Positions 15,372 to 20,176 of a stretch of DNA of 64,000 bases are shown one piece after another. A program made the position numbers and the translations under genes. The DNA comes from a virus (Duplodnaviria > Heunggongvirae > Uroviricota > Caudoviricetes), in the IMG/VR virus record IMGVR_UViG_2609459800_000001, one strand, 5' to 3'. Under the pieces are notes generated by a model. That model was not told where the DNA came from. It saw only the letters and a program-made list of their open reading frames with translations, and did not search any database. The stretch's first letter is position 1. Each line of letters starts with the position of its first letter.

Positions 15372-15605
15372 ATGGGAAAAATAACTTTTGTAGTCGAATT
15401 TGAGGATGGCAAAGAGCCACCTGTTAGCGCCAATCTTGATGTTGCTGGTGGCAGGCTTGTTTCGGTTCTATTTGGTGACTACCGAGATGATTTCTTCCAA
15501 CCAGAAGAAGTTGATGTGGTGCGAGAGGCATTAAACGAGTTAAGTGTTGATAACGATGATGCTCATGCGGAAATCATCCAAAAAATGGAACTGCTAACTC
15601 ACTAA
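15372..15605 (+). CDS. Small acidic hypothetical protein
   Basis: 77 aa from an internal ATG of track ORF 15354..15605. Confidence 0.5.
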   Translation: MGKITFVVEFEDGKEPPVSANLDVAGGRLVSVLFGDYRDDFFQPEEVDVVREALNELSVDNDDAHAEIIQKMELLTH

Positions 15606-15653
15606 ATTATCAATTATGGTGCTATCACCTACGACACCGAGAGAAAATTTATA

Positions 15654-15776
15654 ATGTCAAAAGTAAATGTTTTGATTTTTTCAGCAATTGTTGGCTTTGG
15701 TTTTACTGCCGGAGTGCAGATTTATATTACGTGGGGAAAAATCATCAACTACGCATGGAGTTGTTTTATTAAGTGA
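15654..15776 (+). CDS. Possible 40-aa membrane peptide
   Basis: MSKVNVLIFSAIVGFGFTAGVQIYITWGKIINYAWSCFIK has a single predicted transmembrane helix. Confidence 0.35.
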   Translation: MSKVNVLIFSAIVGFGFTAGVQIYITWGKIINYAWSCFIK

Positions 15777-15783
15777 GGTAAGT

Positions 15784-16077
15784 ATGTGGAGAGGTAATAA
15801 TCATGGCAAAAGCCAGATGATACTTACCGAATATAAGCTAGACCACAAAACCAATAAATCACGCTCAGTATATTTGCTCCGGCACAATAGCCGTGTAAGA
15901 AATACCGTGTTGGAACAAAATCTGACAGTTGAAATGGATAATTACGGGGGATTCAAGCCAACAATTTCGCTTGATGATTTTCCTCGTGGTTTAAGCGAAA
16001 GAGAAGCAATGCTGAAATTAGCAGAATGGCTACAAAGATTAAGCATTGCTATTGAAGATAACTGGTCTGAACCTTAA
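15784..16077 (+). CDS. Small hypothetical protein
   Basis: 97 aa from an ATG after GAGGT, within track ORF 15688..16077. Confidence 0.5.
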   Translation: MWRGNNHGKSQMILTEYKLDHKTNKSRSVYLLRHNSRVRNTVLEQNLTVEMDNYGGFKPTISLDDFPRGLSEREAMLKLAEWLQRLSIAIEDNWSEP

Positions 16078-16083
16078 ATTAAT

Positions 16084-16458
16084 ATGATGACACTAAAACA
16101 TTTTCTTGACCGCCCATTATGGGCGGCAGCCGCAGGCTATGACTTTAATTATATGGATTGCATGTCTTATGCTGCCAATGCATACGACCATTCGTTCAGC
16201 CTGCTGTTTAATTCTTTAAGAATATTGCCGGAAACGGAAGTTGGAGAGCTTCATTTATGGATATTGGGCTTTATCGCGGCTGTCGTTGGTATTGCTGTAT
16301 GGCCTTTTATTTTCTGGCTGGTGGCTGTTGTAGTGTGGTTTAAGTGCAAGACATACCGGAGAAAGTATTTCTTAGGTGATGGAATGACTGATATTGCCAA
16401 AATGAACATTGAAAAATGGACTAAGGAATGTGAAAAGAAATGGCGCAAAAAGAAATGA
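16084..16458 (+). CDS. Membrane protein
   Basis: 124 aa with a long hydrophobic stretch (LHLWILGFIAAVVGIAVWPFIFWLVAVVVWF) and a basic C-terminus. Confidence 0.55.
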   Translation: MMTLKHFLDRPLWAAAAGYDFNYMDCMSYAANAYDHSFSLLFNSLRILPETEVGELHLWILGFIAAVVGIAVWPFIFWLVAVVVWFKCKTYRRKYFLGDGMTDIAKMNIEKWTKECEKKWRKKK

Positions 16459-17120
16459 CTACTCTAACGACAGCATACTTACAGCAATTGGTATTTTTTG
16501 CAGGGGAGGCTACTTGTCATCCTGACGCAAACTATTTATTGGAATTTGAGAGGTTAGCGTCACCCGGTATCGTTCTGGAACTGGCCCAACAGGTGCTGAC
16601 ATTGAGACAAAAAGAGCAACTTGGAAGTGATGCTTACAAGTTAGATTTTGAGCAATGGCTTGAACAGCAACGCGGGAAAATAGATGTGGACTGTGGTTGT
16701 GTGTCCACTGAAACATTCATGCACTGGCTGCGGGTAGCTTACGAGGCTGGCAACTATCCGGATATTCCGGATAGTTCGGTGCCAGCGCCAGGAAAGGGAG
16801 TCACCGGTGAACGTATCCGCATTAAGCCGCATGTTTATCGCGAACTGGTTAACCGCCTCCACGATACAGCGATCAAGTGTGCTGGCACCCAGCAATTACG
16901 AGAAAGAATTAGCCGTGTTTTGGGCGACGTTATTACGCCAGATCATCATAAACAAGCCGAGAAAAGTGACCTGGAAAGGTGTCACCTTGAGGCGGCATTA
17001 AACATTAAGCCGGGGCATACGCTTGGCATTATCGATGCTCTGTTGGTTCATAAGATGGCCAGGGCTTTATTGCCGCTGGTGGCTGATAAGCATGAGGCGG
17101 GCCATGCCAACGAAAGCTGA
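16440..17120 (+). CDS. Hypothetical protein
   Basis: 226-aa ORF in a coupled gene string. The start could be 16455. Confidence 0.55.
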   Translation: MAQKEMTTLTTAYLQQLVFFAGEATCHPDANYLLEFERLASPGIVLELAQQVLTLRQKEQLGSDAYKLDFEQWLEQQRGKIDVDCGCVSTETFMHWLRVAYEAGNYPDIPDSSVPAPGKGVTGERIRIKPHVYRELVNRLHDTAIKCAGTQQLRERISRVLGDVITPDHHKQAEKSDLERCHLEAALNIKPGHTLGIIDALLVHKMARALLPLVADKHEAGHANES

Positions 17121-17385
17121 GTTACAGGCGCGCATAGAGATTCTTGAAAAAGAGAATGCGAGTCTAAAAGGAATGCTGGCGCGGGCGGAAAGGGAATTAT
17201 CAGGCAAATTATTGCCAGAAGAACTGCCACCAGCAGATATACCAGATCGAGTGTCCCGGTGGATGAAGTCTTTTGGTTTGCCGTGGGAGGCTTTTTGGTG
17301 CTACGAGCATCGCAGATGGTGTGATGAACTTGATAGCAGTTTTCCCTACTTTGCGGAAGGGAATACTTGCCCTGAGTTGTATTAG
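17104..17385 (+). CDS. Small coiled-coil protein
   Basis: 93 aa from ATG 17104, within track ORF 17023..17385. Its stop lies inside the left inverted repeat of the AT-rich cassette. Confidence 0.5.
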   Translation: MPTKAELQARIEILEKENASLKGMLARAERELSGKLLPEELPPADIPDRVSRWMKSFGLPWEAFWCYEHRRWCDELDSSFPYFAEGNTCPELY

Positions 17386-17437
17386 CTCAGATTTAACCTG
17401 ACACAGCTACGGCACAGTTCTAAACCTAATCTGACAG
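17379..17437. repeat. Left 59-bp imperfect inverted repeat bounding the AT-rich cassette
   Basis: GTATTAGCTCAGATTTAACCTGACA-N24-AATCTGACAG pairs with the reverse complement of 19522..19582. The spacing is identical, the outer arm matches 22/25 and the inner arm 10/10. Confidence 0.75.
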
Positions 17438-17990
17438 GCCGCTTTGTGCCAAAAGCGGGCATTGGGCGTTGTGGTAAATGCCTGATAATTTCTTCTTTTA
17501 CTAGCACAAGCCGCTGGATAATTGCCATGTTTCCAGCTTAAGTAAATCAAGAACAACTCGCGTACTGGCTGTATAAAGTTTGCCGGACGCAAATTTATTG
17601 ATTTCAGAAAAACCTGTTGAAATAGAGGTATATCAGCGTTAGTTTGATGTGAGTAAAGATCAGGAAAGAAGGTAGAAAAATGTTCCACTTGCGGGCAAAA
17701 AATCCTTCTATTAAATTGTTAAGGCTTTATGAAGATCGTACATTACGAATCGAATTCACCATGGGTAGGGAACATGAAATGTCCAAACCCTAAGTGCAGG
17801 AGGAATGACTCCTGCTTGATTCGGGATAGGTTGTACTCGCATGAAGTATGTATTGGCTCTAAACCCAAATACTGGTGGCGTTTGGTCACAAATACCTTAA
17901 CAAGTTTAGGTATGGGACGCTCCTAACGTCGCGCCCCTGCTAAAAGCGTTAGCTGTTCTCTAGCCTTCAACCAGATAAGGAAATAATCGT

Positions 17991-19421
17991 ATGAGTTCAG
18001 AATTGATTGCAAAACCTGGAACAGGGGTACTTTCCACAGATACAACAAAATTTGAAGGATATTTATCCTATCTTGGTTTGCCGACCGAAAATATAATTGC
18101 CTCTCTCCCTGAGCGCCAAATTATTGAAAAAAACCTCCCCACATTCATAGATTCTTTACCTGTTGAGGTAAAAAGAGATGCTCGATATTTATCAAAGTTC
18201 GTTGCTGGTGCGGCTATAGGACTATTTGATGCATCGTTAAATTATGTTTGGAATGAAGTTGTACTGAATTTAAGGGAAAAAGTAGTAGTTTATGGCCTCG
18301 ATATGTTCTTTGATGCTGCAGTTGGAGGAGGACGTAGAGAGCTTTATTCTACCGAAGAAGATCTTTCTGGTTTAAAAGACAACACCCTTATTAATACTTG
18401 CCGAAAACTTGAATTAATATCTGACGTTGTTTACACCAAGCTCAATCATATATTGACTATGAGGAATGACATTGGTGCTTCGCACCCAAATTCATACTCC
18501 ATAAATGCTTTTGAACTTCTTGGCTGGCTCCAAACATGCGTTCAAGATATTTTGAACGACAAACCGTCCGCGTCTGCCATACAAATAAAATCATTCCTTG
18601 AGAATCTAAAAAGATCCACTGATGTTCTTGATGAAGCCACAATTCATAGCATGGAAAGACCTTTGAATGATCTGTCGCTTCAGAATACAGACAATCTACT
18701 CAATAGTATTTTCGGCATATATACAGCTGACTCAACAGGAAATGTTGTCAGAAAAAATATCGCTCTTTTTGCTCCGCATATCTGGAATAAAAGCAGTGAT
18801 AACGTAAAATACAAGCTCGGTGTGACGCTAGACGGATACAAGAACAATCTTCACAACGAGAAACATGCTTTAGGTATTGAGTTTTTTACGTTTTGTGATG
18901 GTAATCGTTATCAATCATTAGACTCTAGAATTATATCACTGGACGGCCATGCCGACGATCTCTTAGAGGCTAGGTATGCTTGGGATAACTTTTATAATGA
19001 ACCCCCTCATATGCGGAAGATTCTTTCGTATTTAAAGACTGAAAATGACATACCTTTAGAGAGGGTTCATAAGCTTATAAAAACAGTTTTGATTTGCCGT
19101 GTTGGTAAAGGAATACCATATAATACTGGTGTTTCTCCGGCGGGACGACCTTTGTATGATCAGTTTTTTGGCATGCTTGGCGATCAAAACATTATCAATA
19201 CAGTTATAGCAATGCACTCTAATGAAGTGCGAGTGAATTTAGACAACAAATACTGCCAGCAACATATGGTAAGCGTTTTGACTTTGTTAAGAGCCAATGC
19301 TCGTAGCGAAAGAATTCAAGAAATTATAGATTTTTTGATCGCCAACCAAACGATTCTCCATAAAGTACACAACGATAAGAGATATAGAGATCTAACTAAA
19401 AATCACATCAGTTTTGGCTAA
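17991..19421 (+). CDS. Candidate HEPN-like abortive-infection/defence protein (476 aa)
   Basis: It is the only long ORF in an AT-rich island, with RBS AAGGA. It carries an R-x6-H motif (LTMRNDIGASHP, R158/H165) in a predicted helical region. No other recognisable domain. Confidence 0.45.
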   Translation: MSSELIAKPGTGVLSTDTTKFEGYLSYLGLPTENIIASLPERQIIEKNLPTFIDSLPVEVKRDARYLSKFVAGAAIGLFDASLNYVWNEVVLNLREKVVVYGLDMFFDAAVGGGRRELYSTEEDLSGLKDNTLINTCRKLELISDVVYTKLNHILTMRNDIGASHPNSYSINAFELLGWLQTCVQDILNDKPSASAIQIKSFLENLKRSTDVLDEATIHSMERPLNDLSLQNTDNLLNSIFGIYTADSTGNVVRKNIALFAPHIWNKSSDNVKYKLGVTLDGYKNNLHNEKHALGIEFFTFCDGNRYQSLDSRIISLDGHADDLLEARYAWDNFYNEPPHMRKILSYLKTENDIPLERVHKLIKTVLICRVGKGIPYNTGVSPAGRPLYDQFFGMLGDQNIINTVIAMHSNEVRVNLDNKYCQQHMVSVLTLLRANARSERIQEIIDFLIANQTILHKVHNDKRYRDLTKNHISFG

Positions 19422-19521
19422 CAAAGCGCTGCACACGGACTAAATTAAGCTTCGCTCACTGGGGCGGGCGACAGCCCGTCCCTTAACCAAACGTTAATGT
19501 CCGCTTCTCGCTCAAAGCAGA

Positions 19522-19582
19522 CTGTCAGATTTGATTGTGTGCTGCCAGTGAAAACTGTCAGATCAAGTCTGAGCTAATACAC
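19522..19582. repeat. Right inverted repeat bounding the AT-rich cassette
   Basis: Reverse complement of the 17379..17437 architecture. It ends about 20 nt before the next gene's start. Confidence 0.75.
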
Positions 19583-19603
19583 CTGAGTGTAGGAGGTAGC
19601 GCG

Positions 19604-19864
19604 ATGTTTCGTCCTCGTCCAATACCGCCGAAACTAACTAATGGCTATCAGCCGAATACTCCAGAAATACAAGGGAGCGAGGGGCTTAAACCACCACCAG
19701 CACCACGTATTCCGCCTGTAGCAAGGAACGTATCATTACGACGAGAGTTAATATTAGCCTTGTCGCCCATTCTGGCTGCCCGCCAGGATTGGGTAAGTAA
19801 TGATGAACTGGCAGAAAAAATCACATCGCTGGTGGATAAAATTATGGATAAAGCTGATATCTGA
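19604..19864 (+). CDS. Small proline-rich hypothetical protein
   Basis: 86 aa from the ATG after GTAGGAGG, within track ORF 19535..19864. Confidence 0.5.
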   Translation: MFRPRPIPPKLTNGYQPNTPEIQGSEGLKPPPAPRIPPVARNVSLRRELILALSPILAARQDWVSNDELAEKITSLVDKIMDKADI

Positions 19865-19875
19865 TCACCATGCTA

Positions 19876-19905
19876 AAATCCCCTCAATTCACAGAGGGGA
19901 TTTTT
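19876..19905 (+). terminator. Rho-independent terminator
   Basis: AAATCCCCTC-loop-GAGGGGATTT followed by a T-run. Confidence 0.8.
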
Positions 19906-19909
19906 GTAT

Positions 19910-20176
19910 ATGTTGCATAGAGTTTTATGGAAATGCGGTATTGTCGGCGCGATGCTGGCTATATCTGGGTGTGCGATGGTGCAATACAATGACGGCGAAA
20001 AGGTAAGCATCCAGTCAGATGGCTGGTATGGACTGGATAGTCTGCAAAAAACCGCAGATAAAGCCTGTCAGCAATATGGGAAGTCTAAAGCTGTATATCA
20101 GCATAGCGCGAACGCTAACCCTCATCTTGCGCCCGGTTCGGGTGTTCAGAATACCATCTGGAAATGTGAGCCTTAA
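19910..20176 (+). CDS. Lipoprotein
   Basis: Signal peptide with a lipobox (MLAISGC). Confidence 0.65.

Follow-up and report, generated by a model that had tools for sequence, protein, structure and literature searches.

A stretch of Caudoviricetes DNA 64,000 nucleotides long (IMG/VR record IMGVR_UViG_2609459800_000001, hereafter the window) carries, within a P1-type phage-plasmid backbone, a gene for a 476-amino-acid (aa) protein that is predicted, and taken as a whole probably is, a self-contained single-protein abortive-infection effector acting in anti-phage defence. In a predicted structure, the N-terminal part of the protein has a HEPN fold with the canonical motif of that fold. The protein belongs to a large family with no conserved partner gene, and its gene travels alone in a transposon-like cassette whose sisters carry defence systems. 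Effectors of this kind, in which one HEPN protein aborts infection by itself, are already known. What is new here is that the HEPN family was previously unrecognised, that its C-terminal domain is new, and that both go unseen by family and defence libraries; the cassette is a more surprising element than the effector class. An earlier reading of this DNA from its letters alone (the sequence-only reading) had picked out the gene as an orphan with an HEPN-like R-x6-H motif and a candidate single-gene defence function. The open reading frame (ORF), its place in an AT-rich island and its AAGGA ribosome-binding site (RBS; 17977-17981, 9 nt 5' of the ATG) are exactly as that reading described them.

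The HEPN-fold domain, its motif and the C-terminal domain

Evidence for a HEPN domain came from the predicted structure and from a conservation alignment (A2) of 69 homologues at 21-51% identity. In the model, the region of about aa 61-195 forms the up-down four-helix bundle by which the HEPN core is defined (PMC3710099); the sequence-only reading had named this structural check, and its outcome is in favour of HEPN. The motif is also placed as the same definition describes: R158 and N159 close the helix of residues 145-161, and H165 follows at a spacing of 6 in the loop of residues 162-172, ahead of the helix of residues 173-188. The definition calls for a polar residue (N, D or H) right after the arginine, and N159 takes that position. 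R158, N159 and H165 are each retained in 68/69 homologues, the single exception lacking all three, and the family consensus around them reads I-R-x-M-R-N-x-A-S-A-A-H-P-N. In the window protein the motif peptide is LTMRNDIGASHP, with the R158 codon starting at 18462, as had been noted earlier. Across the 69-homologue alignment, aa 61-195 is the most conserved region of the protein. The short helices between residues 103 and 139 fit a HEPN insert, and D80, E89, R95 and D130 are conserved, with no clean Ex3[KR] motif.

Two observations weigh against reliance on the motif by itself. Shuffling this protein yields a strict R[NDH]x3-5H pattern 31% of the time, and the further match to the pattern at R466 is not conserved. 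The caution in the sequence-only reading that so short a motif could occur by chance thus holds for the motif alone; the R158 motif is significant because it is conserved across homologues and placed canonically in the predicted fold. It is very likely that aa ~61-195 truly adopt the HEPN fold and that their motif is functional. The protein is also predicted to be an RNase, which we regard as likely.

The HEPN structures listed for comparison with the model, with the score for each in brackets, were AF0298 (2hsb, 12.0), TTHA0636 (1wwp, 10.7), the HEPN toxin SO_3166 (5yep, 10.4), the sacsin HEPN domain (3o10, 10.0), MtlR (3brj, 9.6), HI0074 (1jog, 9.3), two further HEPN toxins (8xdj, 9.2; 7ae2, 8.7), AbiA (8oz7, 8.6), Csm6 (6tug, 8.1), HepS (9oik, 7.4), LsoA and RnlA (5hy3, 6.9; 6y2r, 6.8) and Cas13b (8wf8, 6.3).

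None of the curated HEPN families includes the protein by sequence, and the earlier suggestion of an AbiD/F, AbiV or AbiJ type did not hold at this level. DUF4145 and Abi_C gave the most frequent weak matches, all of them sub-threshold. Membership in DUF4145 (PF13643) was rejected, the window protein scoring 13.5 bits against a cut-off of 23.1 (E=0.076) over residues 146-167 of the fragment scanned, with the motif outside that stretch; weak matches to this family were found in 10/63 homologue fragments (best E=0.0018). A comparison by hhalign gave a probability of 1.7% against a thin DUF4145 alignment of 4 sequences, its seed having had only 3 homologues. The Abi_C/AbiJ HEPN family (PF14355) was likewise rejected, with non-significant matches in 2/69 full-length proteins (E of at least 0.1) and 4/63 fragments (E of at least 0.046). 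No other Abi HEPN family, such as Abi_2 or AbiV, is among the matches listed for the 69 homologues or 63 fragments.

The remainder of the protein is predicted to be all-alpha and solenoid-like. Family and fold comparisons gave no specific match for these C-terminal ~280 aa, in agreement with the sequence-only reading, which had recognised nothing in this part. The top conserved C-terminal motif contains N333 and E337, both invariant in 69/69 sequences, and the third fully invariant residue of the family is P31; two of the three fully invariant residues thus mark a second conserved site outside the HEPN domain. By analogy with other one-protein HEPN systems, the C-terminal domain is probably a sensor or regulatory module.

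The transposon-like cassette and its sisters

The gene lies within 2,204 bp (17378-19581) that are inserted relative to the uninterrupted sequence ...GCCCTGAGTGTAGGAGG... of the P1-type plasmid NZ_AP027163.1. The insertion is bounded by inverted arms, which are themselves bounded by a perfect 7-bp duplication (Table 1). The left arm consists of a terminal block, TGTATTAGCTCAGATTTAACCTGACA (17378-17403), and an inner block (17423-17463), and the right arm ends in ...TCTGAGCTAATACA. The terminal 14 nt of the arms are identical (TGTATTAGCTCAGA), the left and right arms match at 63/93 ungapped positions, and each arm holds two (A/T)(C/T)CTGACA sub-repeats. A repeat search recovered inverted pairs of 41 nt (80%) and 32 nt (84%). 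The arm patterns matched twice in the window and not once in 100 shuffles, and no further arms or cassettes were found within the window. Inverted repeats, duplication and empty site together are a classic transposition footprint. An integron gene cassette was considered and rejected: there are two arms, inverted and accompanied by a target-site duplication, and this region of the window has no integron integrase.

Base composition changes at the borders of the element, from about 0.50 GC in both flanks to 0.37-0.40 between about 17450 and 19400. The GC content of the ORF is 37.5% and that of the inserted element 39.6%, compared with 48.1% for the window. The backbone around it is of the P1 type: the P1 gene order is kept from phd/doc and humD through a homologue of hot to the more distant lpa and pacA, and the flanking sequence shares 96-98% identity with P1, P7, RCS47 and SJ46. 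The sequence-only reading had placed the gene in a variable slot of such genomes. The interval from the pmgV-like genes to hot does differ among P1-type genomes, being occupied by upfM/upfN/upfO in P1, by one minus-strand ORF in RCS47 and by two small ORFs in the window; the gene itself, however, is the cargo of a transposon-like cassette and not merely the occupant of a slot.

Evidence that the arms are mobile ends came from other elements that carry them. Both arms are homologous to repeats annotated on either side of ORF1 in the Z-region of P2-EC30 (AJ512676.1), including its “left inverted repeat”, and window positions 19496-19535 share 97-100% identity with the right-hand Z-region repeat of P2-like phages. 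These repeats were already annotated in GenBank in the early 2000s. Arm sequence was found in 1,989/5,426 complete E. coli genomes, mostly on the chromosome and often abutting the P2 tail-fibre-assembly gene, a position that corresponds to the P2 Z/fun hotspot, whose conserved borders the arms form. The window cassette is not itself an occupant of that hotspot, since it lies in a P1-type backbone and not between G and FI. Sister elements are flanked by different duplications, namely TATCATT (7 bp) and GATAGC (6 bp) at two loci and CATAAAT and ATTAAAT (7 bp each) in other viral contigs, and the arms act as transposon-like ends at six or more different targets. A further duplication, CTATATC, recurs in four viral contigs with three element lengths, and the occurrence of three lengths at one target suggests that cargo has been swapped between fixed ends.

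Eighteen elements carry 17 unrelated cargo sets that share no protein, and no transposase domain was found among the 18 cassettes. From the footprint, the cassettes would be moved by a DDE transposase or another recombinase, supplied in trans. The cargo of sister cassettes includes PD-T7-3 (ORF1 of P2-EC30, E=3.5e-168), PD-T7-1, PD-T7-5, a CBASS cyclase with a 4TM effector, and candidate PDC-S31. P2-EC30 ORF1 was examined as a possible homologue of the 476-aa protein and rejected (BLASTP E=2.4), its identity being PD-T7-3. One sister cassette, in an integrated element bearing RepL and H-NS, has as its sole cargo a SEC-C-domain protein, WP_086048485 (locus L098, 6199-7404), whose accession occurs beside the label “Predicted novel defense gene” in one excerpt from the supplementary tables of DefensePredictor.

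Experiments have established that P2 hotspots harbour anti-phage systems (Rousset et al. 2022, PMC9122126). For the P2/P4 hotspots, a 2026 analysis left the exchange with other mobile elements unexplained and reported that transposable elements are not significantly numerous there (PMC13586616). A broader proposal joins the cassette to its cargo: that the arms are the ends of a non-autonomous, 7-bp-duplicating cassette family that shuttles single defence systems among P2 prophages, P1-type phage-plasmids and other elements, swapping cargo; and that the cargo in the window founds a new defence family, spanning phyla of bacteria and archaea, with an Rx6H HEPN domain and a novel solenoid sensor bearing an invariant N...E site. 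Both halves holding together is a tentative proposition, to which we give rather less than an even chance.

The insertion has also changed its surroundings. It ends 17 bp ahead of the ATG of the next gene, and the C-terminus of the upstream P1-type ORF (17023-17385) reads ...CPELY* in the window in place of ...CPECRR* in the empty site. The next gene (19606-19864), which keeps its GGAGG RBS, is cut off from any promoter that formerly served it by 2.2 kb and a strong hairpin, and expression of the downstream small genes and hot may be affected. The hairpin lies 40 nt past the stop codon of the 476-aa ORF; the RNA fold of 19422-19500 has an energy of -27.6 kcal/mol (z=-2.98 relative to shuffles), and the hairpin is a possible terminator or RNA-stabilising element. 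On the other side of the gene, the ~610 bp 5' of the ORF hold only short, non-conserved ORFs of 65 aa (17729-17926, + strand) and 93 aa (17407-17688, - strand), which agrees with the earlier description of an upstream region without a convincing gene. These two ORFs were rejected as accessory genes, having no significant Pfam match and no counterpart beside any homologue. A promoter scan of the + strand of the leader (17464-17990) gave nothing over background, and the leader matched no Rfam family.

Two other features of the surrounding backbone were observed. The ORF directly 5' of hot (19904-20176, 90 aa) starts with a lipoprotein-like signal (…GAMLAISGC…); reference P1 lacks this ORF at that position and has upfM, upfN and upfO there instead. 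A second AT-rich stretch (15500-16500, GC 0.37-0.43), with several small ORFs and no cassette arms, lies in the P1-type backbone 1-2 kb 5' of the cassette.

Table 1. Features of the gene, its protein and the cassette, in window coordinates
Feature	Coordinates	Strand	Basis or remark
Left 7-bp target-site duplication, CCTGAGT	17371..17377	.	once in empty site of NZ_AP027163.1
Left terminal inverted repeat arm	17378..17463	+	terminal and inner blocks
Leader, no conserved gene	17464..17990	+	sequence read, promoter scan, ORF/Pfam/Rfam checks
476-aa ORF, sole cargo gene of cassette	17991..19421	+	ATG start
HEPN-fold domain, about aa 61-195	18171..18575	+	predicted structure
HEPN-domain helices, aa 65-75, 79-101; inserted short helices 103-139; helix-3 145-161; helix-4 173-188			
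Catalytic-type motif R158-N159-D-I-G-A-S-H165 (Rx6H, N after R)	18462..18485	+	conservation
C-terminal all-alpha domain, about aa 196-476, alpha-solenoid-like	18576..19418	+	
Top conserved C-terminal motif W-D/N-N-F-Y/H-N-E-P, aa 331-338	18981..19004	+	alignment A2
G+C-rich hairpin, 9-bp stem, 4-nt loop, no U-tract	19461..19482	+	40 nt past stop codon
Right terminal inverted repeat arm	19496..19581	-	
Right 7-bp target-site duplication, CCTGAGT	19582..19588	.	

Distribution, neighbours and proposed function

The protein had been called an orphan, a description that does not survive a wider search. Among 5.8 billion proteins, 1,197 homologues were found; an exhaustive search with a profile yielded 739 representatives (50% clustering), of which 188 had E<=1e-30. 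Full-length members are uniform in length, at about 470-495 aa. A scan using one genome per species confirmed 300 relatives. The bacterial phyla represented are Proteobacteria, Campylobacterota, Planctomycetota, Cyanobacteria, Firmicutes, Actinobacteria, Bacteroidota, Chloroflexi, Verrucomicrobia, Acidobacteria and Myxococcota, and archaeal relatives occur in three metagenome-assembled genomes (Thermoplasmata, Bathyarchaeia and Nitrosotalea). Homologues from Planctomycetes and Clostridia are still ~50% identical to the window protein. As read from these sequences, such a distribution and such identity are what would be expected of an accessory gene that spreads horizontally and is held under strong purifying selection.

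Existing libraries are silent on this family. All family members are named “hypothetical protein” in their sources, and the sole library match of the window protein is PHROG 27609, a group of unknown function (E=1e-121). Comparison with Pfam, NCBIfam and PADLOC gave only chance-level matches, to CoV_NSP7 and a beta-helix repeat, and none of the 5,027 defence protein models of PADLOC-DB v2.0.0 matched the window protein at E<=10; the same models gave scattered single weak matches among the 69 homologues. Sequence searches of the PDB with a full-length and an N-terminal profile each returned 0 matches at E<=10. The window protein is absent from the portion of the DefensePredictor tables that was consulted, and the accession of the 476-aa protein was not found in the full-text literature.

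Gene neighbourhoods bear on whether the protein works alone. The neighbouring ORFs of 80 aa or longer at 78 diverse loci numbered 521 and fell into 473 clusters, the most recurrent of which was present in 7 loci. No small ORF (30-160 aa, up to 800 bp before or 600 bp after the gene) recurs in more than 3/83 loci, and none matches the short ORFs of the window. Because no neighbour is conserved across these 78-83 loci, the protein appears to have no antitoxin, MNT or other partner of any size, which bears out the earlier proposal of a single-gene function. An MNT-HEPN (type II/VII) toxin-antitoxin pair was rejected, as no conserved nucleotidyltransferase gene, large or small, is adjacent. The neighbours are mixed, with DNA methyltransferases/mad2, two pAgo, PDC-M52B, Fic, HNH and an Eco57I-type restriction-modification protein on the defence side, and ribosomal protein S2, EF-Ts, Hsp70 and LpxB on the housekeeping side.

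Closer relatives are sited on conjugative plasmids (in an island flanked by insertion sequences, IS), beside integrases and in a P2-like prophage. Copies at 80% coverage or more were found in 49 plasmid records and 48/5,426 E. coli genomes. These copies match only window positions 17441-19517, at 99% identity and with truncated arms, and the complete HEPN-carrying element is apparently unique to this window among the collections searched. They are always followed by a truncated 200-aa “site-specific integrase”, which lies outside the arms, and an 810-bp minus-strand ORF (loci L002 and L003, 9122-9724; locus L016, 8149-8751). This arrangement suggests that another and older vehicle, perhaps a genomic island, was the source of the plasmid and chromosomal copies, with onward spread in IS26-bounded plasmid segments. 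On the Klebsiella IncF plasmid CP067827.1 (1-16074), the gene lies in an IS-flanked island beside a 1,209-aa DNA helicase, a DUF4145 (HEPN-family) protein and an HxsABCD His-Xaa-Ser radical-SAM system; this looks like a defence-type island. A 53%-identical homologue occurs in an E. coli P2-like prophage remnant, between ogr and gpD and beside a hok-like gene. The ogr-gpD site is outside the Z/fun and tin/old hotspots, and P2-like elements may have a third variable position there. This homologue has no cassette arms, and the same is true of distant homologues, including those outside enterobacteria; the gene family is therefore far older than its capture by the cassette.

Under the proposed mechanism, the N-terminal HEPN domain, with R158-N159-x5-H165, would be an endoribonuclease that needs no metal. 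Other HEPN enzymes suggest that it would be active as a dimer or larger oligomer, in which two motifs are brought side by side. The C-terminal solenoid, with its N333/E337 site, would silence the nuclease until binding of a phage-derived trigger released it, and cleavage of tRNA, rRNA or mRNA would then stop phage production and abort the infection. The gene is not native to the P1-type backbone, and the footprint indicates that it arrived by transposition as the sole cargo of the 2,204-bp non-autonomous cassette. The inference of a defence role is strengthened because sister cassettes carry defence cargo.

The same fold and mobility could instead belong to a HEPN toxin that serves its mobile element through addiction, post-segregational killing or competition between elements (for example, by keeping out rival plasmids or prophages), without acting against lytic phages. 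This explanation is unlikely, given that no antitoxin or partner of any size is conserved, that no MNT nucleotidyltransferase is nearby, that many homologues are chromosomal and beside housekeeping genes, and that sister cassettes hold bona fide anti-phage systems. In a different alternative, the HEPN domain is non-catalytic or has a housekeeping role, binding nucleotides, RNA or protein as do MtlR, sacsin and the substrate-binding domains of nucleotidyltransferases, and regulates or processes RNA while being neither toxic nor defensive. Loss of the Rx4-6H motif is typical of HEPN families without catalytic activity (PMC3710099), whereas R, N and H are near-invariant here; in addition, the patchy, cross-phylum, mobile-element-linked and high-identity distribution is that of an accessory gene. 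We consider this alternative quite unlikely.

The position of the gene in a phage-plasmid, among small accessory genes upstream of hot, would suit a moron with a function that benefits the phage, such as counter-defence or the commandeering of host RNA in the P1 lytic cycle. However, no encoded homologue was found in sequenced phages, most copies are on conjugative plasmids and chromosomes, and the cassette type is associated with defence cargo, all of which makes a phage-benefit function very improbable. As the only gene between the inverted repeats, the ORF might also be taken for the cassette's own recombinase or transposase, but this is effectively excluded: the 17 other cargo sets between homologous ends include no homologue of the 476-aa protein, homologues outside enterobacteria lack the arms, and the protein matches no DDE, tyrosine or serine recombinase in signature or fold. 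A single-protein abortive-infection effector remains the preferred reading.

If the protein is a defence effector, it represents a very widespread, conserved single-gene system that is invisible to Pfam and PADLOC and that has a new sensor domain. The clean transposition footprint makes the hopping of defence genes between phage hotspots, phage-plasmids and plasmids directly testable. If the cassette reading is true, it supplies a mechanism for the exchange between hotspots and other elements that the 2026 study left unexplained. The cassette ends also provide a sequence handle for mining new defence cargo between paired arms.

Comparison with known systems

The closest worked example for the proposed mechanism, by analogy, is HepS, a single-protein HEPN abortive-infection system of the Gifsy-1 prophage (PDB 9oik) in which phage tail-tip proteins switch on the cutting of tRNA anticodon loops (PMC13043305). 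Sequence comparison detected no similarity between the two proteins. HepS has 218 aa, whereas the window protein has 476 aa, with an extra alpha-solenoid domain of ~280 aa and Rx6H spacing. Another validated one-protein HEPN system is DS-11, which combines CBS and HEPN (PMC13092281). The window protein differs from MNT-HEPN toxins and minimal HEPN proteins (AF0298, 2hsb; TTHA0636, 1wwp; SO_3166, 5yep; 8xdj; 7ae2), which are ~120-140 aa long, are paired with an MNT antitoxin and have RX4HXY-type motifs. It is also distinct from the Abi HEPN proteins (the AbiA C-terminal domain, AbiD/F = Abi_2, AbiJ = Abi_C, and AbiV) and from DUF4145, its Pfam matches being far under the curated thresholds. Domain order differs as well, in that the HEPN domain is C-terminal in AbiA and AbiJ but N-terminal in the window protein.

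The P2 Z/fun cassettes, such as that of P2-EC30 (AJ512676.1), resemble the window cassette in having homologous inverted arms of ~90 bp and one or few cargo genes, and their known cargo consists of anti-phage systems (PD-T7-3 in P2-EC30). Unlike them, the window cassette lies in a P1-type phage-plasmid and has a perfect 7-bp duplication with a matching empty site. In the portions of the sources covered, the 476-aa cargo is not reported from the P2 Z/fun hotspot. With their ~86 bp, repeated sub-sites and TGT...ACA termini, the ends look more like those of Tn7, Mu and Tn552 than like simple IS ends. In these families 7-bp duplications are unusual, with 6-7 bp reported for Tn552. Mobile insertion cassettes (MICs) and other non-autonomous transposon derivatives have terminal inverted repeats, a target-site duplication and passenger genes, lack an internal transposase, and occur in several copies at different targets; these features match those of the window cassette and its sisters.

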